NCBI GenBank assembly: GCA_024679065.1
Contig: JAGIQG010000023.1
Coordinates: forward strand, 26,536,001 to 26,600,000
DNA from: Sphyrna mokarran
Taxonomy: Eukaryota
Direction: 5' to 3'
Length of the DNA: 64,000 bases
Shown here in pieces: positions 7,417-64,000 of the stretch (positions are counted from its first letter, which is position 1; each line of letters begins with the position of its first letter). The notes below the pieces were generated by a model. That model was not told the DNA's origin, did not search any database, and was given only the letters and a program-made list of their open reading frames with translations. A program made the position numbers and the translations under genes.

Positions 7417-8113
7417 ATCTGGAGGATCAGAAGGACCTTGGGGTCTGGGTCCATAGGATCTTAAATCGGTCTTGCAGGTGGAGGATGTGGTCAAGAAGGC
7501 ATATGGTGTGTTAGCCTTCATTAATCAAGGGATTGAGTTAGGAGTCGGGAGATAATGCTGCAACTTTATCTCACCCTTGTCAGACCCCACTTGGAGTACT
7601 ATGTGAGGTTCTAGTCGCCTCACTACAAGAAGAATGTGGTAGCTATTGAAAGGGTGCAGAGAAGATTTACAAGAATGTTGCCTGGATTGGGTGGCATGCC
7701 TTATGAGAAGAGATCAAGGGAGCTCAGTCTTTTCTCCCTGGAGAGACAAAGGATGAAAGGTGACCTGATAGAGGTTTATAAGATGTTGAGAAGTATAGAT
7801 AGGGTGAATTCTCGGAGGCTATTTCCCAGGGCTGAAATGGTCGCTACAAGAGGACACAGTTTTAAGGTGCTGGGGAGTAGGTACAGAAGAGATGTCAGGG
7901 GTAAGTTTTTCACACAGAGGGTGGTGAGTGAGTGGAATCGGCTGCCATCAGTGGTGATGGAGGCAAACTTGCTGGGGTCTTTTAAGAGACTTCTAGATGA
8001 GTACATGGGATTTAATGGGATTGAGGGTTATAGTTAGGTCTGATAGGGATGGAATATGCTTGACTCAACTTGTGGGTTGAAGGGCCTGTTTGTGCTGTAG
8101 TGTTCTATGTTCT
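7417..8113 (+). mobile_element. CR1 (HER1-like) LINE, 5'-truncated 3' end
   Basis: ORF 7636-8037 ERVQRRFTRMLPGL...FFTQRVV..WN.LP is CR1 ORF2 C-terminus; (gttctat)n tail. Confidence 0.92.
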
Positions 8114-11170: not shown

Positions 11171-12257
11171 TGGAGCTTATGAAATTTTAGCCTGGAGTTC
11201 TGATTGATAGAAGTTGTTGTTAAGTTTGTGATGAGTGTGTGATACATTGAGCTGTGGCAAAGACCAGTGGTGCAGTTACTTAGGATGTGGTGCATTCACT
11301 GACTTTGATTGCTTGCCTGAGATAATTGAAGCTTTTGTGGTATTCAAGTGTTTGAGGTTTGCTGCTTGGAATTGACCTCCATGGTTGCCTCTGAATATGT
11401 ATCTGGCCCCCAGTCAACACAGGACATCTATCCTGTCTGTTACCTTCTTCACCAACGCATCCAGTGCAGGATTCAAGAGCCCCTTTGAAATCATGGTGTG
11501 CCGTTCTTCAGTATTTTTCAGTTACTTCCTCTATGACCACAAGCACCTGCTCCAGCCATAATGTACCTCTCCTTTTAATATGTACAAGCTTGTTTCAAGT
11601 GGTGCAGGCTGTGGTTCTAGCCATTCCCCATACTGACACCTTGCTCATTCAGAAAAACATTCAAGAGGGAACTTAACACTATCTGGATGCTGAAATAATT
11701 GAAATAAGCAGATAACACAAAGCTGGTGTGTTGTCTTCATTGCAGGTGTAAGTAAATAGTGCATCATGGGGGCACTTGGATTTAGCTTTCAGGGAGTTTT
11801 CCAATAGATCCTAAATAGAAAAATGTGATTATTTCCAGGGTTATAATCCATTTTTTAATTCATTAGCCTCTAAAGATTTTAAGATTGTTTAAGTGTTTAT
11901 GAATAGCAAGGCAGGAATTCTATATAAGAATAATGGGCACTAAGAATAGCTTTCAATGGAATTTAAGCCAAACAGTTCTTTTGCATATTCAGTTCTTGTT
12001 CATACATTTTGTGTTGTAAGCATCAAGTTGGTTTTTGAGGAAAATGGAATGTGCTAAATTCGTTGTTGGACCGGTTTATCAATGTCGTTAACATTTCATT
12101 TAGTTGCTAAGAATTTGGACGTACATTTAACTTGTCATTTGATACACCTTCAATATTTCCTGTTCTTCTATTGCAGTTTCATTTGGCACAGACTGGCATT
12201 ATTAAACACATTTGTACCCTGGAGCTTGGCACATATAGGATGCTAAGAATTTTGGCC

Positions 12258-15877: not shown

Positions 15878-15959
15878 GTAATTTTGACTGTATATTCCAC
15901 AAAGTCAAATGTGCATTATTTTAGCTGCAGTAATTGTTTGCGATAAAAATGTGTGTCTA

Positions 15960-16292
15960 GGGAGGCATGGTAGCACAGTGGGTAGCACTGTTGCTTCACA
16001 GCTCCAGGGACCTGGGTTCGATTCCAGGCTTGGGGCATTGTCTGTGTGGAGTTTTGCGTGGGTTTCCTCCGGGTGCTCCGGTTTTCTCCCACAGTCCAAA
16101 GATATGCAGGTTACGTTGATTGGCCATACTAAAAATTGCCCCTTAATGTCCTGAAATGTGTAGGTTAGAGGGATTAATGTGTAAAATATGTAGGGATTTG
16201 AGGGTAGGGCTTGGGTGCGATTGTGGTCAATGTGGACTTCTTGGGTTGAATAGCCTCTTTCTGTACTGTAGGGTTTCTATGATTTCTATGAA
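15960..16292 (+). mobile_element. HE1-type V-SINE
   Basis: gggaggcatggtagcacagtgg...gggttcgattcc...gggtttcctccgggtgctccggtttt. Confidence 0.88.
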
Positions 16293-17274
16293 TTGCATTT
16301 GGAATACTTCAGAAGTAAAATTCCATAAATATCTTCACCCAGGTTTAATTCTGCCTGGCAAATCTAGGTGAAATATTGCACTTACCAATACAAATACCGT
16401 GGAATCATTTTGGCCCTGAACCATCTCTGGTTTATTATTAGCTGCAATTTCAATGATGTTGGTTCAGAATGAGTGAAAGGGAGGATTTACCTCCAGCCAT
16501 TCCACCCCTTCATGGACTTTTTTGAGTGTAGATGTATTTGTGAACCATTGACTTTAAGTGAAGGAGAAAAATTTCTTCTGCACTTGCAACAACTCAACTC
16601 AGCTGTTTTGTAATAAGACACAAAATGCAGGAGTGTGGGCAATAAAGAACCCATCAGAAGCAGAAATAAAAGGACTTTTTCATTAAAAAAAGACACAAAG
16701 TGCTTATTCCGATGCCTCGTTATCAGTAAGTTCTGTTGGAGCTCACTGGGCGAGAATAGACCACATTCAAGAGACACCAGATTCTTCAGCATTCACACGT
16801 GAATTTTAGATCTTTACCCCTGCTAGATTGGAAAACTTCCCTACCGATCATTCTCTTCTGCCAGATGATGAGAGAGTGCGAGAGAAAAGGAGCTGTGACT
16901 CTCTTATCCATTTTCTGTCCTTACTGTATATACCATGCAAAATGTACTCCAGCAAAAGTGACTTTAGAGATATATGGGGTTGAAATTCATCTTGGATGGG
17001 GATTCCAATGGGCTATTGTTAGATTGACTGATGTACTACATATTTATCTCAATTGGCTGCATTGAACTTGAATCTAGGGAGCTATGTTTAACTGGTCTGT
17101 TTGACTCCACAGCCCAAGATGAATTTCTGGCCCATAGGAACTTCTGTTACACATCCTTGATCCAATAACTTGTCACTTGCTTCCCTACTGTAGAGTTCCT
17201 TTATGCAATCTATGTACTAATCTCTGATTCCCTTTCATTGATATTAAAGACCTATCTCTCTTTTCTCCTTTTAG

Positions 17275-17370
17275 GTTGTCCACCATGATCCCTGCAGAGG
17301 AGGTGCTGGCCATTGGAACAGCCTCTACAGGTTCAAACATTTAGCTACAGGCCATTACCTGGCTGCTGAG
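17275..17370 (+). CDS. ITPR3: ITPR3 exon (approx. 9)
   Basis: ttttag / gtttgc; 96 nt = [32 protein letters not shown] ([13 protein letters not shown] is type-3-like). Confidence 0.95.
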
Positions 17371-17436
17371 GTTTGCTTATCACTTTGTTTTAAGAAATAA
17401 TGCTATTTTGAGAGACAGATCACTAAACTGTAATCG

Positions 17437-17473
17437 ATCACTTCTCGGCCTTTTGGCTAAGATCAAGTGTAGT
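17437..17473 (+). pseudogene. U2 snRNA 5' fragment (nt 1-37)
   Basis: atcacttctcggccttttggctaagatcaagtgtagt = vertebrate U2 nt 1-37 with one mismatch; no Sm site or 3' half follows. Confidence 0.93.
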
Positions 17474-17727
17474 GTTGACATGCTGTGCTTGGTTGAAGTC
17501 ATTAGGTTACATTTTAGCTTTATTTGAATTTTTAAAAGTGGCATCTCAGTCTTTTGGCTAAGCTGCAAATGAGATCAAGCCTTGGAGGTGAGCTGTGCCT
17601 GCTCCAAATTAGCTTGGATCATGTCGATCAAGCCCTGTCTTGTCAGCTTGTATCGGGGAATGTCTCAACTTTTTGAGACTCTGAATTGGACTTGATTTGA
17701 TTGAATTGGAATAAAAACAACAAAAAA
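17437..17727 (+). mobile_element. candidate U2-headed retroposon (SINEU-like or U2-LINE chimera)
   Basis: U2 head, second degenerate U2 segment at 17541-17579, hairpins, aataaa plus A-rich tail at 17710-17727; no TSD found. Confidence 0.5.
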
Positions 17728-18727
17728 TACGAATCAAATCAATACTATCTGCGGACTGAGAATCCAAGAGCAATCTCTTGCAGATTTTGATTACTTATGC
17801 AGAAAAGAACTGTTTGGATTACCTATCAGATGGTTATATCTCCTGCTCGCTGGCATTATTGGGACTGAAAGTTGGCATGATTGCAATTCTAGTTGTTGAT
17901 CCAAGTGTAATAAAAAAATTAAGAACATCAGCAACATCTCGTAGATGTAAACACTTGGGCTGGAACTTTCCAGCCTCGCCCACCAGCTGGATCTTCCAGT
18001 TCTGCCAAAAATCAGTGCCCAGTACCTCCACAGTAGATCTCGCCATGGCAGGACTGGCAAATCCCAGGTGTAAAGGTGTTTTTGATGGGTATCCAGAATG
18101 ATAAAAGATGTCAATATTTCTGCGAAGTAAATTGTAAAATACGTATCTAGTGTGTTAACAGGTGGAAATCTCAACATAACTGAAGTTACTTTTAAGCTGG
18201 TAAAACCACAAGTTTCTATAAAGGAAGTGACATGATGCTTTTAAAATGACCTTTGTGGTTACGGCTAATGTTAAAAGCATTGCCCCTACTTCCAGTTAAG
18301 TGATGATTCTGTTCCATGATGCCCTGATACTTTTCATAGGAACAAGATCACTGAACAAAATAGTCATCCGGTACATGAAAAATCTTCAAGAAGATCATTA
18401 ATCTTCACTGATGTATAATCGGCAGGTCGCAAAATCCTCCAAGAAGGTGCAACTTATGTGATTGATCCTAGAGGTTCTGTACGTAGGTTGGGATGGCAGA
18501 TCTGTGGCAGAATGACATTTCTGGAAGAGTGCTATTGTAAGGCCTTATCAAGCCATGGGGTAGCATTAAGAAAAAAGAATCTCTTAAGCCATACAAAGGG
18601 CTCAAATTGGTCCATCAAATTGGTCTCTTTGAATTCATTACTTTTGATGGCTTAAACTGGTGAGCTTTTACAGTACCCACAGTAGAACCAAACCTATTCT
18701 GGGTTGATAGCAGAACTGCAGCAAATG

Positions 18728-19042
18728 GATCATAGAACCTCAGAATCCCTACAGTGCAAAAGGAAGCCATTCAGTCCATTAAGCCTGCAATGACAACAAT
18801 CCCACCCAGGCCCAATCCCCATAACCCCACTTAATCACCCTGCTAATACCCCTGACATTAAGGGACAAGTTAGCATGGCCAGTCAACCTAACCTGCACAT
18901 TTTTGGACTATGGGATGAAATTGGAGCACCTGGAGGAAACCCAAGCAGACATGGAGAGAACATACAAACTCCACAGAGATAGTCGCCAGAATTGAACCCA
19001 GCATTGTGAGGCAGCAGCACGAACCACTAAGCAACCATGCAT
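18728..19042 (-). mobile_element. HE1-type V-SINE
   Basis: gaatccctacagtgc tail and ggagcacctggaggaaaccca V-domain. Confidence 0.85.
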
Positions 19043-19840
19043 CCACAAAGAATTCCTATTAAAATCTAGGAACCAACTTGTATACATTCCTGTTCTTTGG
19101 GACAGGAGTGGGCATTTGATCACTAGATCAGTTACTATTCTCTGGATAACTTAAATGTAGTGGAATCCAAGCAATTCCATATTTCACCCCAAATTCTAAT
19201 CATTATCATATAGCTTTCCCTGAATTTCTAGGCATGGATTTCACCAGGTGCATTTTCCCATCAGTACACCTGAAATCCAATTGACACGAATCAAGAACCT
19301 GTAGACCTATTTAGCTGAGCTTTCATTTCATCATATCTCTTGTTAAAGGAGCAAAGCTTTTTCCTGGACATTCAAACATTCCTTTAATGCTTAGATCATT
19401 CTGCAATGATGATCGGATCTTTACCCTTGCAAATCGGGATTGCTGCATCTGCAAATCAGCGTGATGACGTTGGGTTGGTGCCTGACATCATTTTGCTGGT
19501 TTCCCACAATATGGTCAGAAGGAACATCATTAACAGCCAATTGTTAATGAGCCAATTATCACAAATATGCAGTCTATGCCAATGCCCTCTGAGGTGGTAC
19601 CTCAGGTCAAATGTTTGTCCACTTGAATCTCCAGTATGAAATGTGCCAGAGTCCCCTCACTCTGACATAATGGTACTGAAGAAAATGCTGTCCAATAGGT
19701 ATCTGTGCAGCATTTCCAAAGAGTTTGCACATTCCATAAAGCAGTGGTACATCCTTTGGGTCATGCCCTATACACATCAGAGTTCCTTTGCCACTCTGCT
19801 ACCCTATTGTGCCCAATCCCTTCCCATCTATAACCGTATT

Positions 19841-22720: not shown

Positions 22721-23407
22721 TCAATTAATATTTCCAGGCACTTGAGATAGTAGGCTGGATTGTCTTACTTGTAGTTAATGAGGGTCTGACTTCCTTTGCA
22801 AAGGTGGATATGACACAGATTGAAGGTGTTATTGGTGCCCAGTTGCCCAAAGGACCATATTAATAACCTTCTCTGTTTTCACACCCTGCTAAAACTGAGG
22901 CAGCACTAAAATGGGAAATCAGGATTGAAAGACTACACAACTGCAGAACAGGAAGAATGAAATGAATAGATCCTTGTTAATTTAAAATTCAAATTAGATT
23001 TGTAGACAAATGCCATTGAGAATGTTACCACTGGCCACTGATCTTACTATCAGCAAATTACTTTATGCAGGTTAGGTTGTGCTATTCATCCATCATCCAA
23101 TTTCGCTCTTCCAGCATTCTCTTTCTCCAAACAGTAATTAGACAGGAAACTAGGAAAAGTAAACTATGGATGCAAGAACAATGTTTCAATGTGTGTTATG
23201 AATTTAATGGAAAATTAAGATTAATTAGCAGCAGCAATCTTCCAGCTCAGTTTATCCAGCTCTCTGTCCACTCAAACGTATGTTAACATATGGACAATAT
23301 CTTGAAAAGATGTTGCAAATAAACCACAGAACTCTGTTGATTCCACTGAATTGCTGTGGAAATGTGGAGTGTTCTCCATGGATAGATACGGACCTTGATT
23401 CTCCCAT

Positions 23408-24782
23408 CCAAAAAAGGAGGTGGACAAAAGGCTGGTAACTACAGACCGGTTAGCTTAACATCTGTAGTTGGGAAAATGCTGCAATCTATTGTTAGAGAAG
23501 AAATAGCAGGACACCTAGAAAAGAATGATTCAATCAAGCAGACACAGCATGGATTCTTGAAAAGAAAGTCATGTTTGATGAATTTACTGGATTTTTATGA
23601 AGATGTAACGAGTGCGGTGGACAGAGGGGAATCGGTGGATGTGATGTTTTTAGATTCCCAGAAGGCGTTCGATACAGTGCCTCACAAAAGGTTGCTGCAC
23701 AAGATTAAGATACACAGAGTTGGGGGTAAAGTGTTAGCATGGATTGAAGATTGGCTATCTAACAGAAAGCAGAGAGTTGGAATAAATAGGTGCTTTTCCA
23801 GTTGGCAGTTGGTGACTCGTGGCATCACCACAGGGATCGGTGTTGGGGCCTCAACTGTTTACCATATACCTAGACGACCTGGAGGAGGAGACCGAGTGCA
23901 GGGTAACGAAGTTTGCTGATGACACAAAGATATGTGGGAAAGCAAATTGCGTGGAGGACACTGAAAATCTGCAGAGAGATTTAGATAGGCTAAGTGAGTG
24001 GGCAAGGAACTGGCAGATGGAGTATAACATTGCCTTGTGTGACATTATCCGCTTTGAAAGGAATAGTAGTAAAATGGACTATAAATGGTGAAAAATTGCA
24101 ATATGCTCCTGCGCAGAAGGGTCGAGGGGTCCTTGTGCATGAATCACAAAAACTCAGTTTGTAGGTGATCAAGAAGGCAAATGGAATGTTGCCCTTTAAC
24201 GCGAGGGGGATAGAATATAAAAGCAGAGAGGTCTTGCTGCAGTTGTACAAGGAGAGGCTGAGTCATGTGCAATTTGAGAAAGGATATATTAGCTTTGGAG
24301 GGAGTGCAGAGAAGGTTCACCAGGTGATTCTGGAGATGAGGAGGTTGGCTTATGAGGAGACTGGGCCTGCACTCATTGGAGTTTGGAAGACTGAGGGGAG
24401 ATCTTATAGAGACATATAAGATAATGAAAGGGCTAGACAGGGTAGAAATAGAGAGATTATTTACATTTAGAATGGAAACAAGAACTAAAGGGCACAGCCT
24501 CAAAATAAGGGGAGTCAATTTAGAACAGAGTTGAGGAGGAACTTCTTCTCCCAGAAGGTAATGAACCTCTGGAATTCTCTGCCATTAAAACAGTGGAGCC
24601 TACCTTGTTAAATGTGTTTAAGTCACAGGTAGATAGATTTTGACCAATAAAGGAATTAAGACTTATGGGGAGCACGTGGGTAAGTGGAACTGAACCACTA
24701 TCAGATCAGTCATGATCTTATTGAATGGCAGAGCAGGCTGGAGGGGCTAGATGGCCTACTCCTATTTCTTATGTTCTTATGT
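23408..24782 (+). mobile_element. CR1 LINE, 5'-truncated, frameshifted RT
   Basis: NYRPVSLTSVVGK, QHGF, D.QKAFDTVPH, PQGSVLGP, KFADDTK motifs across ORFs 23395-24534; (ttcttatg) tail. Confidence 0.93.
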
Positions 24783-25967: not shown

Positions 25968-26832
25968 GGGCTGTTTTCCTTAGAAAGACGTAGTCTTAGA
26001 GGAGATCTAATAGAGATGTACAAGATTACGTGGGGTCTCGATAGAGTAAACAGGGTTAAGCTTTTTCCTAGGATGGACTCGAATAGCATGAGGGGTCACG
26101 GGCTTAGGGTGAGGAGGGTAAGGTATAATTTGGATGCTAGAGAGAGTTTTTTCACACAGAGGGTGGTGGGGGTATGGAATGTGCTGCCAAGTGGTGGAGG
26201 CAGGTACTCTGGAGTTACTTAAGAAATACTTAGATGGGCACATGAACAGAATGGGAATGGAGGGGTATAGAAAACTGATTTAAAATAGGGATCATGAGCC
26301 TTGGGAGTCCCTGGGAAGTGTGTAAATAGACGATGATATTGATGTACTTGTTTTTATCCTACAGGTGCTTTTGTCCACCTTGTTGTCTAACAAGGGGCAC
26401 ACACGCGATGGGTCGTGAGAGGGCTGCTCTTGGATTTTTTCGAGCGTATCCTAGTGCTTCATGTCATTAGTGTATGCTTGACCTGGACCATTTGATGGGC
26501 AACACGACAGCTCAGTGACTATCGCTGTGCTGTGCACATACATGGATTTGGGCCAGTGTCTGTGGAAATTTGCGCATTCTCCCCGTGCTTGCGTGGGTTT
26601 TCTTCAGGTGCTTTGGTTTCCTCCCATATCCCAAAGATGTGCTCTTAGGCTAATTGGCAAAATAAATTCTCCCTAAATTGTCTCAAATTTGGTTTTTAAT
26701 CCATAGATCTATAAACATAGACAGGGATCACAGGTAGAGGTGGGAACATCGGGATGGTGGCACAGACTTGTTGGGCCGAAGGACCTGTTTCCTGTGCTTT
26801 TTTTTCCTTTGTTCTTTGCTTTTTGTTCTTTG
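25968..26832 (+). mobile_element. CR1 3' end with long 3' UTR containing a V-SINE domain
   Basis: ORF2 C-terminus ending YRKLI*, unique UTR, V-domain at about 26555-26670, (ctttgtt)n tail; two further copies. Confidence 0.85.
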
Positions 26833-28625: not shown

Positions 28626-28670
28626 GAAAATGCAGCTTACAAAGGAGATGCCTCTGATTCAAGATTTGTG
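28626..28670 (+). CDS. ITPR3: ITPR3 45-nt small exon (approx. 10)
   Basis: ttttctttcag / gtaagt; ENAAYKGDASDSRFV, matches recalled human ITPR3 ENPSYKGDASD; phase 0-0. Confidence 0.9.
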
Positions 28671-29319: not shown

Positions 29320-30980
29320 GCCGATTAAATTCTTTGAGGAGGTAACTAAGAACAAAGAACAAAACAGCACGGGAAACAGGCCCTTCGGCCCAACGAGCCT
29401 GCGCCGCCACCCTGATGTTCCCATCTCTACCCGCAATCCCTGTCTATGTTTATAGATCAGTGGATTTAAAACCAAATTTGAGACAATTTAGGGAGAATTC
29501 CTTTTGCCAATTAGCCTAAGAGCACATCTCTGGGATGTGGGAGGAAACCGGAGCACCCGGAGAAAACCCACGCAAGCACAGGGAGAATGTGCAAACTCCC
29601 ACAGACACAGGCCCAAATCCATGTATGTGCACAGCACAGCGATAGTCACTGAGCTGTCGTGTTGCCCATCAGAAGGTCCAGGTCAAGCGTACACGAACAA
29701 CGTGAAGCACTAGGATACTCTCGAAAAAGATCCAAGACCAGTCCTCTCACAACCCATTGCGTGTATGCCCCTCGTTAGACAACAAGGTGGACCAAAGCAC
29801 CTTCAAAGTGTGTAGATGAAGATAGAGCAGTTGATGTCATATACATGGATTTTAGTAATGCATTTGATAACGTTCCTCATGGTAGGCTCATGAAGAAAAT
29901 AAGGAGGTGTGGGATAGAAGGAAATTTGGCCGATTGGATAAGTAACTGGCTGTCTTATAGAAAACAGAGGGTGATGATGAAGGGAAAATTTTCAGACAGA
30001 AGGCCAGTTACTAGCAGTGTACTACAGGGATCAGTGCTAGGCCTTCTGCTATTTGTGATTTTTATCAATGACTTGAAAGAGAGGGGCTGAAGGGTGGGTT
30101 AGTAAATTTGCTGATGATACCAAGATTGGTGGAGTCATGGATGAGGTGGAGGCCTCTTGTGGGCTGCAGAGAGACATTGATGGGATACAGAGCTGAGCAG
30201 AGAAGTGGCAGATGGAGTTTAAGCCTGATTAGTGCAAGATGATTCATTTTGGTAGGACAAACTTGAATGCGAATTACAGAGTCAATAGCAGGGTTCTGAG
30301 GAATGTGGAGGAGCAGAGAGATCTTGGGGTTCATATCCACAAGTCTCTGAAGGTTGGTACTCAAGTGGATAGAGCCATGAAGAAGGCTTATAGTGTGTTA
30401 GCGTTTATTAACAGGGGTTTGAGTTTAAGAACCTCAACCATACCGGACCTTAGTGAGACCACATTTGGAGTATTGTGTGCAGTTCTTGTCACCTCACTAT
30501 AAGAAGAATGTGGAAGCATTGGAGAGAGTACAGAGGAGATTTACCAGGATGCTGCCTATTTTGGAGGGTAGGTCAATGAGGAAAGATTGAGGGAGCTGGG
30601 GCTTTTCTCTTTAGAGTGGAGGAAGATGAGAGGGGACTTAATAGAGATTTATAAGATGATGAGGGAGATAGATAGAGTGGAGATGCAGAGATTATTTCCT
30701 CTGGTGGATGTAGTTGTTACTAGGGGGCATAACTATAAGATTCATGTTGGGAGATATCGGAGGGATGTCCAAGGTAGATTCTTTACTCAGAAAGTGGTTG
30801 GGGTGTGGATTGCCTACTGTGATAGTGGACTTGGACAGTTTAGGAACTTTCAATCCATTATTGAATAGGCACATGGAGCACACAAGAATGCTAGGCAGTG
30901 AGATAGCTTGGTCTTGAGTTTGGACATAGCTCGGTACAACACTGAAGGCCAAAGGGCCTGTACTGTTCTATGTTTCTATG
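29320..30980 (+). mobile_element. CR1 LINE (decayed RT to 3' end) interrupted at 29351-29802
   Basis: FFEEVTK | CVDE.RAVDVIYMDFS split by the insertion; QGSVLG, KFADDTK, (ttctatg) tail. Confidence 0.92.
29351..29802 (-). mobile_element. 3' UTR-only copy of the V-domain-bearing CR1
   Basis: reverse complement of about 26363-26830; (aacaaag) tail; nested in another CR1. Confidence 0.85.
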
Positions 30981-33385: not shown

Positions 33386-33537
33386 GGAGAACACAGAAAC
33401 CTAAATCGAAACAGCAAGAGAAAAGGAGGCGACAATGTCAGATACAAGCTCGTGGCTGTGCCGCATGGAAATGACATTGCATCCCTGTTTGAACAAGATC
33501 CAACTACTCTGCAGAAAACAGATTCGTTTGTTCCCAG
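33386..33537 (+). CDS. ITPR3: ITPR3 exon (approx. 11)
   Basis: ctcaacag / gtactc; 152 nt = GEHRNLNRNSKRKGGDNVRYKLVAVPHGNDIASLFEQDPTTLQKTDSFVP(R); 5' part divergent so acceptor slightly less certain. Confidence 0.9.
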
Positions 33538-36426: not shown

Positions 36427-37310
36427 CAAAGTACAAAGAACAAAACAGCAAGGGAAACAGGTCCTTCGACCCAACGAGCCTGCGCCACCATCTTGATGTT
36501 CCCACTTCTACCCATGATGCTTGTCACGCCTGTCTATGTTTATGGATCTATGCATTAGAACCATATGTGAGACAATTTAGGGAGAATTTGTTCTGCCAAT
36601 CAGCCTAAGAGCACATCGTTGGGATGTGGAAGGAGACCGGAGCACCCGGAGAAAACCCACGCAAGTATGGGAAGAATGCGCAAACTTCCACTGACACAGG
36701 CCCAAATCCATGTGTCTGCACAGCACAGCAGTAGTCATTGAGCTGACGTGTTGCACATCAAATAGTCCAGGTCAAGTGTACACTAATGACCTGAAGCACT
36801 AGGCTACTCTCGAAAAATCCAAGAGCAGCCTTCTCACGACCCATCGCGTGTATGCCCCTTGTTAGACAAGGTGGACCAAAGTACTTGTAGGATAAGACAA
36901 ATACATCAATATCATCGACTATTTACACACTTCCCAGGGAACTCCCAAGGCTCATGATCCCTATTTTAAATCAGTTTTCTATACCCCTCCATTCCCATTC
37001 TGTTCATGTGCCCATCTAAGTATTTCTTAAATAACTCTCGAGTGCCTGCCTCCATCACTTTATTTGGCAGCGCGTTCCATACCCCCACCACCCTCTGTGT
37101 GAAAAATCTCCCTCTAGCATCCAAATTATACCTTACCCCCCTCACCCTAAACCCGTGACCCCTCGTGCTATTGGAGTCCATCCTAGGAAAAAACTTAACC
37201 CTGTTTACTCTATCTGTACCCCTCATAATCTTATACACCTCTATTAGATCTCCTCTAAGTCTACATCTTTCAAAGGAAAACAGCCCCAATTTGCCTAACC
37301 TCTCTCATCT
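36427..37310 (-). mobile_element. CR1 3' end with V-domain-bearing 3' UTR
   Basis: ORF 36966-37289 GLFSFERCRLRGDLIEVYKIM...MEGYRKLI; UTR is the reverse complement of 26285-26830. Confidence 0.88.
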
Positions 37311-43646: not shown

Positions 43647-46570
43647 ATAGAACATAGAAAACTACAGCACGAACAGGCCCTTCGGCCCACAAGTTGCGCC
43701 GAACATCTCTACCTACTAGACTTACCTATAACCCTCAATCCTACTAAGTCCCATGTACTCATCCAGAAGTTTCTTAAAAGACCCTATCGAATCTGCCTCC
43801 ATCATCACCAGCAGCTGATTCCACGTATCCCCCACCCTTTGAGTGAAAAATGTACCTCTGATATCTCCTCAGTACCTATTCCCCAGCACCTTAAATCTGT
43901 CTCCTCTTGTGGTAGCCATTTCAGCCCTGGGAAAAAGCCTCTGAGAATTCATCCGATCAATATCTGTCAACATCTTATACACTTCTATCAGGTCATCTCT
44001 CATTCTTCTTCCCTCCAAGGAGAAAAGACCAAGCTCTCTCAACCTATCCTCATAAGGCATGCTACCCAATCCAGGCAACATCCTTGTAAATTTCCTCTGC
44101 ACCCTTTCAATGGCTTCTACATCCTTCCTGTAATGAGGCGACCAGAACTGAGCACAGTACTCCAAGTTGGGTCTGACCAGGGTCTTATACAGCTGCTTTA
44201 TCTCCCGACTCCTAAAGTCAATTCCTCATTTGATGAAGGCCAGTACACCATATGCCTTCTTAACCACATTCTCTACCTGCGAAGCTGATTTGAGAATCCT
44301 ATGAACCTTGACCCCAAGATCCTTCTGATCTTCCACACTGCTAAGTCCTACCCTTGATATTGTATTCCTTCATTCCATTATATTGTATTCTTTCATCCCA
44401 TTTGACCTGTCAAAATGAACCATCACACACTTATCCGGGTTGAAGTCCATCTGCCACTTCTCCACCCAGTCTTGCATCTTATCTATGTATTTCTTCAACT
44501 TCTGACATCCCTCCAAACTATGCACAACCCCTCCAACCTTCTTGTCATTGGCAAACTTACCAACCCATCCCTCCACTTCCTCATCCAAACAGGATCCAAA
44601 CTAAAAATCACAAACAGCAAGGGTCCCAGAAGAGATCCCTGGGGCACTCGACGTGATTGACCTCCGTGCTGAAAAAACCCCATCTACAACCATTTTAACC
44701 AGTCAGAGACAGCAGTGGGAAGTTGTGCGTGGAGCCTGAAGAGATTGGAGAGGCACTGAACAAATATTTCTCTTCGGTATTCACGCAGGGAGATGTAAAT
44801 GTAGTTGTGGAGAATACTGGGATACAGGGTAGCAAACTGCAAAGTATTGAAGTAGATAAGGAGGATGTGCTAGATATTCTTGAGGGTTTGAAGTTAGATA
44901 AGTTCCCTGGGCCGGATGGGATTTACCCTAGGATTCTCTGGGAGGTGAGAGAGGCGATTGCAGAGCCTCTGGCTCTGATCTTCAGATCGTCGTTGGTTAC
45001 AGGTATAGTGCCGGAAGACTGGAGGATAGCGAATGTGGTCCCATTGTTCAAGAAGGGGAATAGAGACTTTCCTGGGAATTGTAGACCGGTGAGTCTTACT
45101 TCTGTTGTGGGCAAAGTATTGGAGAGAATTATTAGGGATAGGATTTATAGTTATTTAGAGAGAAATGAATTGATTGGGGATAGTCAGCATGGTTTTGTGA
45201 CGGGTAGGTCGTGCCTTACTAACCTTATTGAGTTTTTTGAAAAAGTGACCAAAGAGGTGGATGGGGATAAGGCAGTTGATGTGGTATATATGGACTTTAG
45301 TAAGGCGTTCGATAAGGTTGCCCATGGAAGGCTTCTGCAGAAAATGCAGATGTATGGGATTGAGGGTGATTTAGCTAATTGGATTAGGAATTGGCTAGCT
45401 GATAGAAGACAGAGGGTGGTGGTTGATGGGAGATATTCATCGTGGAGTTCGGTGACAAGTGGTGTACCTCTGGGGTCTGTTTTGGGGCCCCTGCTGTTTG
45501 TAATTTTTATAAATGATCTGGATGAGGGTATTGAAGGATGGATTAGTAAATTTGCGGATGACACCAAAGTCGGAGGAGTGGTAGATAGCGAAGAGGGATG
45601 TTATAGTTTGCAGAGAGACTTGGACAAGTTGCAGAGCTGGGCCGAGAGGTGGCAAATGGAGTTTAATGTGGAAAAGTGTGAGGTAATTCACTTTGGCAGG
45701 AATAACAAATGTGTAGAGTACAGGGCTAATGGTAGGACTCTTAATAGTGTTGAAGGACAGAGGGATCTTGGTGTATATGTGCATAGATCCCTGAAAGTTG
45801 GCAATCAAGTCGATAAGGTTGTTATGAAGGCATACGGAGTCTTAGCTTTTATTGGTAGGGGGATTGAATTTCGGAGCCATAACGTCATGTTGCAACTGTA
45901 CAAAACTCTAGTGAGGCCGCACTTGCAGTCCTGGTCCCCGCATTATAAGAAAGATGTGGAGGCATTGGAGAGGGTACAGAGGAGGTTTACCAGGATGTTG
46001 CCTGGTATGGAAGGCAGGTCTTATGAAGAGAGGCTGAGGAATTTGAGGTTGTTTTCGTTAGAAAGAAGGCGGCTAAGAGGAGACCTTATTGAAACATAAG
46101 ATGATTAGATGTTTAGATAGGGTGGACAGTGATAGCCTTTTTCCTAGGATGGAGAAAGCTAGCACGAGGGGACATAGCTTTAAATTAAGGGGTAGTAGTT
46201 ATAGGACGGATGTCAGAGGTAGGTTCTTTACCCAGAGGGTGGTAAGGGTATGGAATGCCCTGCCTGCTGCAGTTGTAGATGCGCCAAGTTTGGTGGCGTT
46301 TAAGAGGTCCGTGGATAGGTTTATGGATGAAAAGGGAAGGGTTTAGGTTAGAGGGTCATTGCTTTTTCTTAATTGGTCGGCGCAACATCGAAGGCCGAAG
46401 GGCCTGTTCTGCGCTGTAATGTTCTATGTTCTATGTTCTATTTTTTGCCCTCTGTGGGCAAGCCAGTTGTAGATCCACAAAGCAATGTCCCCTTGGATCC
46501 CATGCCCCCTCACTTTTTCAATAAGCCTTGCATGGGGAACCTTATTGAATGTCTGAAAAAGCATATGTAG
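43647..46570 (-). mobile_element. CR1 LINE (minus strand), split by an opposite-strand CR1; pieces 43647-44696 and 46441-46570
   Basis: EYCAQFWSPHYRKDVEAIERVQRKFTRMLPGL, KFAND, VPQGSLLGP, then KVPHARLIEKVRGHGIQGD beyond the insert. Confidence 0.9.
44697..46440 (+). mobile_element. CR1 LINE, young 5'-truncated copy with a 458-aa open RT frame (44723-46099)
   Basis: PGPDGIYP, CRPVSLTSVVGK, QHGF, MDFSKAFDKV, GVPLGSVLGP, KFADDTK; one frameshift near 46090; (gttctat)n tail. Confidence 0.96.
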
Positions 46571-53759: not shown

Positions 53760-53768
53760 GTTAGGGAA

Positions 53769-54111
53769 TAGAATCATAGAACCCTGCAGTGCAGAAAGAG
53801 GTCCTTCAGCTCATTGAGTCTGCACCAACCACAATCCCACGCAGACTTTACTCCCAAATCCCTACACATTTACCCACTAATCCCTCAAACCAACGCATCT
53901 CAGGATGCCAAGGGGCAATTTTAGCATGGCCAATCAACCTAACCTGCACATCTTTGGACTGTGGGAGGAAACCGGAGCACCTGGAGGAAACCCACGCAGA
54001 CACGAGGAGAATGTGCAAACTCCACACAGACAGTGATCCGAGCCAGGAGTAGAACCCAGGTTCCTGGAGCTGTGAAGCAGCAGTGCTAACCACTGTGCTA
54101 CCATGCCGCCC
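53769..54111 (-). mobile_element. HE1-type V-SINE, well preserved
   Basis: ggaaaccggagcacctggaggaaacccacgcagacacg...ccactgtgctaccatgccgccc. Confidence 0.9.
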
Positions 54112-55104: not shown

Positions 55105-55262
55105 NNNNNNNNNNNNNNNNNNNNNNNNNNNNNNNNNNNNNNNNNNNNNNNNNNNNNNNNNNNNNNNNNNNNNNNNNNNNNNNNNNNNNNNNNNNNNNNN
55201 NNNNNNNNNNNNNNNNNNNNNNNNNNNNNNNNNNNNNNNNNNNNNNNNNNNNNNNNNNNNNN
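55105..55262. other. assembly gap (158 N) bordered by CA-rich low-complexity sequence
   Basis: run of N; degenerate (CA)n at 55263-55400. Confidence 0.99.
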
Positions 55263-62641: not shown

Positions 62642-62744
62642 GATGTGGAGATGCTGACTTTGGACTGGGATAAACACAGTAAGAAGTCTGATAACCCCAA
62701 GTTTAAGGTTGGACTTAAACCTAGTGTTGTCAGACTCCTTACTG
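62642..62744. mobile_element. Penelope-like hairpin mini-insertion with 13-bp TSD
   Basis: cccttaagatcaa at 62629-62641 and 62745-62757; gatgtggagatgc end; arms cagtaagaagtctga / tcagactccttactg. Confidence 0.7.
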
Positions 62745-63667
62745 CCCTTAAGATCAATCCATTTATCATTAACTTCCCGTAAGTGTGAACTGATAATTTT
62801 GTGGCAAGGGCAGCCGGATATCGGAGACTTTACTAAACAGTGGGATCTGAAGAATACCTCTTAAACAATGAGAGTGAAGGATTGAGATAGAAACAGGAAT
62901 GAAAGTGAAGGAAATTAGATTAATTAAATTCAAAGCCAGTACAGAAAAAGACATGAAGAGAGGGGGAAGCGACTGGGATAAAGATAGGAAGAAAAAACAC
63001 AGAAGGGAAAAGATTTTTGCAAAGATAACTTTTTAGAATCTCTGAGAACAATTCACCAGCTGAGAGAGTGAGACGCCATACTTTCAATCGTTCCTCTTTA
63101 ATTGACCAGAGAAGTTGATTGGCATTGAATTAACAATCATCACATCATTGAAAGGGCACTTACACTGTTAATTACCAGAACAATTCATTTCACCACTTTG
63201 AATGGAAAATTAATTTGCAAGTGCAGTAAATTTTTAAGAACATTAAAGACAAGCACTAATGAGAACCTCCATTCATCAAATGTTTGCTCAGAGTGGATAC
63301 CTGAGCAGCAACTTTGAGATTTTTAGTTCACGTCATGGCCGGGATTTTCCAGCCATTCATATCCCCCTGCCGCTGCAAACGAGGATGGGGAATTTGGCTT
63401 CATCCAAATTTCCGTTCACTGCAGCAGGACCAGAGAATCTAGCTGGCATAAACAACTGGAAAATCTCAGCCCACAGCATAAAGGAATTGGAGTGAGCGAG
63501 GGGCAAATAATGGGAAGCCCATTGATCTCGGATGGGGTTTTACGGTTTTGGGACGAGTTGAGGCCTTAAATCCCATCCCATATCTCAATCCCTGAACCTG
63601 TGATTCTATTTGCAAATTAACAGCGCTGTGCATCATTCACATCCCATTATATTTCCAGTAAAGTCAT

Positions 63668-64000
63668 TGAAATCAGACAAAACCTACAGTACAGAAAGAG
63701 GCCATTCAGCCCATCAAGTCTGCACTGACCACAATCCCACCCAGCCCGTACCCCCATATCCCTACATACTTACCCACTAATTCATGCATCTTAGGACACT
63801 AAGGGGCAATTACCATGGTCAATCAACCTAACCCGCACATCTTTGGATTGTGGGAGGAAACCGAAGCACCTGGAGGAAACCCACAGAGACACAAGGAGAA
63901 TGTGCAAACTCCACACAGACAGTGACCCAAGGTGGGAATCGAACCCAGGTCCCTGAAGCTGTGAAGCAGCATTGCTAATCACTGTGGTGCCTTGCCGCCC
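63668..64000 (-). mobile_element. HE1-type V-SINE, full length
   Basis: tail cctacagtacagaaagaggccattc, V-domain, head ending gccgccc at the window edge. Confidence 0.9.

Follow-up and report, generated by a model that had tools for sequence, protein, structure and literature searches.

A U2 snRNA-headed composite insertion with a predicted head-masking arm in an ITPR3 intron of Sphyrna mokarran

The analyzed window is a 64-kb stretch of Sphyrna mokarran DNA that contains exons of ITPR3, a calcium-channel gene, and an unusual element of about 310 nt related to U2 snRNA. The features of the locus are shown in Table 1. The paralogue was identified as ITPR3 because of the best match of the exon that begins at 33386 (E 9e-16 for ITPR3, against 3e-11 for ITPR2 and 2e-9 for ITPR1). 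For this exon, 67 of 68 candidates were relatives and were 70-93% alike; those with names belong to teleosts, sturgeon, frogs, and primates. Across the full exon length there was no near-identical one, which is compatible with a lineage other than these. The element starts at 17437, 66 nt past the 5' splice site of the preceding exon, within an intron of 11.3 kb, and has the sense orientation, on the transcribed (+) strand of the gene. The exon matches thus confirmed the intronic location given in an initial annotation of this DNA and named the gene. The element is non-coding, and no ORF of 120 aa runs across it. An ENP-like frame at 17758 was rejected as a coding exon inside the element: it has no acceptor and contains a stop, and the true exon is the 45-nt one downstream. 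The latter is a possible alternative exon, at the place where we take ITPR1 to have its alternative SI segment. Upstream of the first exon, a MITE-like inverted repeat occupies 16973-17136 (arms of 23 nt, 87% complementary, 118 nt apart).

Table 1. Positions of the features in and around the U2-related element
Feature	Position	Strand	Basis or remark
ITPR3 coding exon	17278-17370	+	phmmer against ITPR1/3 structures, E ~1e-15
Upstream flank, weakly like U2 nt 24-37 (upstream half of the target site)	17412-17436	+	
U2 snRNA nt 1-37 (head), 36/37 identical	17437-17473	+	Rfam U2 model and human U2
Antisense arm, with predicted pairing to the head	17478-17508	+	Folding, complement scan
Second, decayed U2 block	17541-17579	+	nt 4-25 at 19/22, 11-nt insert, nt 26-31
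Two further predicted hairpins	17569-17656	+	U2 nt 25-31 heptamer on each 5' arm
Perfect 7-bp hairpin	17662-17679	+	
Terminal hairpin, 11-bp inverted repeat enclosing AATAAA and the A-rich run	17681-17754	+	
Candidate 3' junction	17743-17751	+	8/9 match to the Utopia/Keno target word
Next ITPR3 exon, 45 nt	28626-28670		Between exons 17278-17370 and 33386

Sequencing run X1 contained 0.73 of the sampled words of 17150-17950, and the expectation without the element is at most ~0.56. The element is therefore not an assembly artefact, and X1 may be the source sample. The runs of relatives shared 0.20-0.29 of these words, which fits ~95-96% identity with the element or a higher identity without it. 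This comparison covered 24 runs from 12 studies; six rows marked "RNA?" (0.10-0.14) and one DNA row below 0.2 were left out.

In the Rfam search, model position 1 of U2 falls on 17437, the first base of the match (E 2.6e-7; 51.5 bits, with a gathering score of 46). The human U2 sequence given in S1 Fig of PMC4640811 differs from the head solely at nt 4, at a CpG, and the divergence interval of the head is 0.07-14%. The score derives from the head, because 17478-17900 by itself gave no match to the U2 model at E<=10; this also ruled out a diverged full-length U2. The head starts at the U2 transcription start and stops one base short of the Keno/Utopia insertion site (U2 1-38|39; PMC4640811, PMC6136364), which gives the U2 nt 37-38 junction typical of those elements. 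The initial annotation had described the head, its break near this site, and the lack of the U2 3' half, and all three descriptions hold. In place of a 3' flank running on from U2 nt 39, there are five bases at 17747-17751 that resemble U2 nt 38-42.

A search for snRNA promoter sequences found no octamer in 16900-18100, and by eye we saw no proximal promoter element upstream of the head that resembled what we take to be its consensus. The full U2 fold, the Sm site, the 3' stem-loops, and the snRNA promoter of a functional U2 gene or variant are absent from the locus, which is neither a U2 gene nor a Keno/Utopia insertion within an intact U2 gene. The alignment score of the upstream flank to U2 nt 24-37 was reached by 0.8% of the 12,711 25-mers of the window. 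The resemblances of both flanks to the target halves are weak and were noticed post hoc.

Behind the head lies a segment that is predicted to fold back on it. In the hairpin (17447-17508), 25 of 29 columns are paired (15 Watson-Crick and 10 G-U) and four are unpaired. The top ungapped complement of 27 U2 bases among 127,501 positions on both strands was 17482-17508, with 23/27 pairs including G-U; the next had 21. Shuffling the 60 bases behind the head gave 23 pairs in 4 of 20,000 trials. The folding of 17445-17510 on the + strand had a z of -4.8, and none of 832 GC-matched window tiles folded as well as the head hairpin. The - strand of 17437-17520 had a z of -0.64, so that the hairpin belongs to the + strand only. 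Judged by folding energy, the head-arm pairing was equaled in 5 of 2,000 shuffles of the tail. Of the 6,379 37-mers of the window, 70 did as well as the arm, the complement of the head itself being among those counted. Head and arm make an unremarkable inverted repeat at the DNA level (14/27); they are striking only when RNA pairing is applied to the transcribed strand.

The arms of this hairpin are unequal. The 5' arm shows 0/27 changes from U2, and the 3' arm shows 13/27 departures from the exact complement (Fisher 3.6e-5). This shows that the two arms differ in age or constraint, and it ruled out a snap-back duplication decaying neutrally. Twin priming was also ruled out, by reasoning, since the geometry of the arm is wrong for it. 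A head true to U2 beside a diverged arm is expected if a real U2 gene renews the head while the arm evolves under RNA pairing. The G-U versus Watson-Crick bias of the arm (Fisher 0.005) was offset by a control, in which the Watson-Crick share of the pairing was 0.61 in the arm and 0.62 in 56 chance windows. It was therefore dropped as a proof of selection and is not independent evidence. In the predicted fold, U2 nt 11-37 are paired; among them are the bases in contact with U6 and the greater part of the branch-point recognition sequence, whose start is placed at nt 33 (PMC13019295). The head-arm hairpin is the strongest feature of the locus and was absent from the initial annotation.

The second U2 block had been noticed earlier, and of 4,246 window tiles it proved to match the head best (36.5 vs 31.5 for the runner-up). 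U2 nt 4-25 correspond to 17541-17562 and nt 26-31 to 17574-17579, and the two in-stem changes both preserve the pairing of U2 stem I. Seven + strand copies of the U2 nt 25-31 heptamer occur in the window; three are within the element, and each of these forms part of the 5' arm in a predicted hairpin. The body hairpins of the initial annotation were correctly placed, but the folding of 17540-17660 was no better than that of shuffles (z 0.02), and perfect 7-bp hairpins like the one in Table 1 occur at 36 loci across the window. The earlier proposal that U2 heads were acquired twice fits the two blocks; a partial duplication fits them too, and the non-U2 parts of the two units aligned no better than chance (equaled by 431 of 2,000 shuffles). 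A tRNA head was searched for and ruled out. No Rfam family fitted the body (17478-17900), and the Rfam search likewise ruled out an HDV-like or other ribozyme in the element; none would be required if the RNA starts at U2 +1.

At the 3' end, a perfect 11-bp inverted repeat (17692-17702/17732-17742), one of four such loci in the window, surrounds an A-rich run (17710-17727) that opens with AATAAA at 17710-17715. With 25 A in 40 nt, this run is in the top 0.07% of the window. It had been read as an A-tail that ends the element; the reading as a poly(A) tail is weakened because the run lies inside the loop of the hairpin. The pairing may reach as far as 17754, and the element probably extends to about 17750. 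The U2 38-42-like word stands at the end of the candidate junction. Matches of 8/9 to the target word were found at four sites on the + strand of the 64 kb, and the five-base word alone occurs 84 times in the window, so that it is weak evidence. The target word is known from off-target Utopia junctions (Kojima and Jurka, PMC4640811). The A-run lies 31 nt from the candidate junction, and the corresponding distance at the reptile Utopia ends of PMC4640811 (S1 Fig) is ~5-10 nt. A target-site duplication (TSD) had been reported as absent, and our searches agree: there was no direct repeat of at least 7 nt with at most one mismatch in eight, and the best gapped match was not above chance.

Two resemblances were seen in this region. 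By eye, 16/17 letters followed by AATAAA in 17690-17715 resemble the 3' end of the starfish Utopia-1_PMi (PMC4640811, S1 Fig), possibly by chance, the sequence being AT-rich and the end one of ~twenty family ends compared. The flank just past the element (17793-17890) is weakly like 11880-12020 (-) and may be an old repeat that marks the 3' boundary.

The 64-kb window has no second copy of the element. SINEU families have 137 to ~7,700 copies (PMC4494074), and families of 137-7,700 copies would give 0.003-0.16 copies in such a window of an assumed 3-Gb genome, so that the zero says little. A 22-base body segment gave 0 matches in a metagenome scan; this is uninformative, because its SINE-tail control found 116 loci, none of which resembled the window SINE or the body over 30 nt, and so revealed no such host DNA.

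The search for an L1/Tx1 or Utopia remnant identified none in the window. Two of the ten scanned ORFs carry RVT_1, and we read both as CR1-type. These LINE fragments lie at 44699-46099 (+), with a 466-aa open frame kept, and at 23386-23919 (+); related pieces are at 7420-8113, 25968-26818, 29348-30814, and 36427-37286. The element has no likeness to the LINE fragments of the window, and a self-comparison of the window ruled out a tail common to the element and the SINE or CR1-type fragments. The SINE is a tRNA-type family of 330 nt, presumably HE1/V-SINE-like, with copies 67-83% alike at ~20 places (e.g., 15958-16294 +, 18732-19053, 53768-54111 -, and 63661-64000 -) and a tail word repeated at eight places. 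Elsewhere, a near-palindromic hairpin (62683-62738) had a weak miRNA-model score on both strands, and 158 N beside a CA-rich repeat (55105-55262) mark an assembly gap.

The locus is a real, oddly built U2-derived insertion, probably beyond an ordinary pseudogene. The exact start at nt 1, the end beside the Keno/Utopia site, and the U2-related body support the retroposed U2 composite that was first suggested. Present at the locus are the U2 1-37 head, the second block, the complementarity, and the A-rich loop, with no TSD or octamer found; movement is something that we infer entirely. We propose, with a probability of about 40%, that 17437 to ~17750 was retroposed from a short non-coding element, the master of which occupied the target site of a U2 gene at nt 37/38.

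In this model, a U2-targeting LINE (a Keno-type Tx1 element, or Utopia) would have placed a non-autonomous element at the site in a U2 gene. The U2 promoter would then transcribe it, giving an RNA with U2 +1 as its first base and nt 1-37 as a newly acquired head. The element's 5' end is predicted from folding to pair with U2 nt 11-37 and to hide the branch-point recognition and U6-pairing bases, and such masking would stop the chimeric RNA from behaving as a faulty U2. From this RNA, the LINE enzymes may have made a copy within the ITPR3 intron, at a site loosely resembling U2. The decayed second block may have been left by an earlier round of the same cycle, or by a partial duplication. Transcription from the U2 start would produce the exact 5' end, and the target site would produce the exact junction between head and body. 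Selection on the co-transcript would give an arm whose pairing follows RNA rules, with the head remaining faithful to U2, and a U2-targeting endonuclease of loose specificity would leave target-like flanks, as with reptile Utopia. The present copy lacks its own promoter, and its only transcription would be within the ITPR3 pre-mRNA.

Several observations favor a master inside a U2 gene. The head begins at U2 nt 1 and ends at the Keno/Utopia site, both of them meaningful points. The arm is the best complement, folds on the + strand only, and differs from its partner, and the second block is top-ranked. The flanks are weakly target-like (0.8% upstream; four sites in 64 kb for the junction word), which would be reminiscent of the target-like sites where off-target reptile Utopia copies sit (PMC4640811). 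Against this model, there is no second copy and no L1/Tx1 or Utopia remnant in the window, no TSD was found, and the A-run is in a loop 31 nt from the junction. The head ends at nt 37, whereas Utopia leaves 1-38, and the non-U2 parts of the units align no better than chance. The G-U bias is not independent, 70/6,379 37-mers fold equally well, and the flank likeness is post hoc. The fuller claim is of a retroposon family outside crocodilians, with an insertion in the U2 gene at the Keno/Utopia site that renews the head, a borrowed U2 promoter, and an antisense arm that locks the spliceosome-active bases of the head. It is put forward tentatively, since the odds are rather against it.

A dead chimera whose head was never part of a traveling family is an unlikely origin, though one to be taken seriously, and it could have formed in two ways. 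A 3'-truncated U2 retrocopy (nt 1 to ~42) may have landed, after which a U2-targeting element interrupted it at nt 37/38; or U2 nt 1-37 and an older U2-derived RNA may have been fused by a single template switch. Both agree with the U2 38-42-like word at the far end and with the lack of a second copy within the window. There is a precedent in crocodilians, where a Utopia copy went into a truncated U2 retrocopy at its target site (PMC4640811, S4 Fig); U2-repeat chimeras occur in human (1 of 58 copies; PMC4476161), and R2 jumps onto snRNA (PMC3414825). However, neither by itself explains the complementarity directly behind the head, and no TSD was found around the supposed retrocopy. The prior for an ordinary origin is high, because the other 57 of the 58 characterized human U2 copies are plain 3'-truncated pseudogenes, the commonest class (PMC4476161). 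A tailless U2 pseudogene beside unrelated intron DNA, with the second block, the arm, and the A-run arising by chance, is nevertheless very improbable here. Several hairpins of the element are indeed unremarkable, but the body itself is U2-related, and the head would need two rare coincidences, the best complement of 127,501 positions and the best sense match of 4,246 tiles. Such a pseudogene is a 3'-truncated U2 flanked directly by a TSD; 50 of the 57 human copies have one (PMC4476161), and none was found for this copy, 36/37 identical.

The element may instead be a structured RNA, derived from a retroposon and retained by the host within the intron, with selection holding the U2 head and the masking hairpin. 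Its role would be to tune ITPR3 splicing or to yield a small RNA, 66 nt from the 5' splice site. The intact head with an arm that has diverged and can still pair, the sense orientation beside the splice site, the in-stem changes of the second block that keep stem I pairing, and the structure extending past the A-run all agree with this. Yet a young age accounts equally for the intact head, given its divergence interval of 0.07-14%, and the body fits no Rfam family. Microprocessor prefers stems of roughly 35 bp, and the 29-nt stem is below this preference. We consider a host-kept RNA improbable.

Kojima (2015, PMC4494074) left open how SINEU is transcribed, the U1 and U2 promoters lying upstream of the gene. 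A testable answer, namely masters inside U2 genes, is suggested by a head with its limits exactly at the U2 start and the Keno/Utopia site and by a body predicted to pair with this head. If this is true, it would explain how snRNA-headed SINEs are transcribed and why U2 heads were gained repeatedly, and it would show how such an element avoids poisoning splicing. An snRNA-headed retroposon would also have arisen independently in another vertebrate lineage. Should the body be single-copy and lack conservation, the locus would be a dead chimera, curious and of little consequence.

We compared the element with known systems. Tailless U2 pseudogenes and U2-repeat chimeras, as characterized in PMC4476161, also start at U2 nt 1, stop in a single-stranded region, and have no promoter; the element differs from such pseudogenes in that no TSD was found for it and it continues into a U2-related, U2-complementary body. 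Like the R2 SIDEs, it would be short and non-autonomous and share its transcript with a multicopy RNA gene (PMC3414825), and at R2 5' ends the retroposed RNA may carry up to 36 nt of 5' sequence of the target gene (PMC3414825, PMC3774820). R2, in contrast, is described as using an HDV-like ribozyme and 28S rRNA genes (PMC3414825, PMC3774820), and the element has no ribozyme match.

Keno (Tx1 clade) and Utopia (RLE) share with the element the break at U2 nt 37-38 and AATAAA near the 3' end (PMC4640811, PMC6136364), and the candidate 3' junction has the short form of the off-target reptile Utopia copies (PMC4640811). Unlike them, the element has no coding sequence, U2 promoter, or U2 39-191, and its head is 1-37, not 1-38. 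From Utopia it also differs in the 31 nt between AATAAA and the junction, and the Utopia species table of PMC4640811 has no cartilaginous fish.

The closest likeness is to SINEU-1 of crocodilians (Kojima, 2015, PMC4494074), which is described as non-coding and under 500 nt, with a 5' U2 head, more than one U2 segment, and an A-rich 3' part. Its TSDs are hard to find, it shows repeated U2 additions and partial duplications, and it is tied to Keno-related Tx1 LINEs; SINEU-2 also has truncated and unaltered target sites (PMC4494074). Of the SINEU characters, the locus has the snRNA-derived 5' head and the short non-coding length; where a 3' poly(A) tail would be expected there is an A-rich run inside a hairpin loop, and no TSD was found. 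SINEU is said to occur only in crocodilians (PMC4494074). Among the literature matches listed, none reported an snRNA-headed SINE from sharks or rays, and an entry in Repbase or Dfam may exist; the accounts of shark SINEs in PMC5381603 and PMC5499810 name none. The element differs from SINEU-1 in that its A-run is enclosed by a hairpin, no Mariner target was seen, and it is known here from one locus, and the description of SINEU-1 in PMC4494074 mentions no pairing between head and body. Compared by description, the element is a candidate that would work like SINEU, with a U2 head, repeated U2 segments, an A-rich end, and a likely Tx1/Keno partner, and relative to the known SINEU accounts its new feature would be the masking arm.
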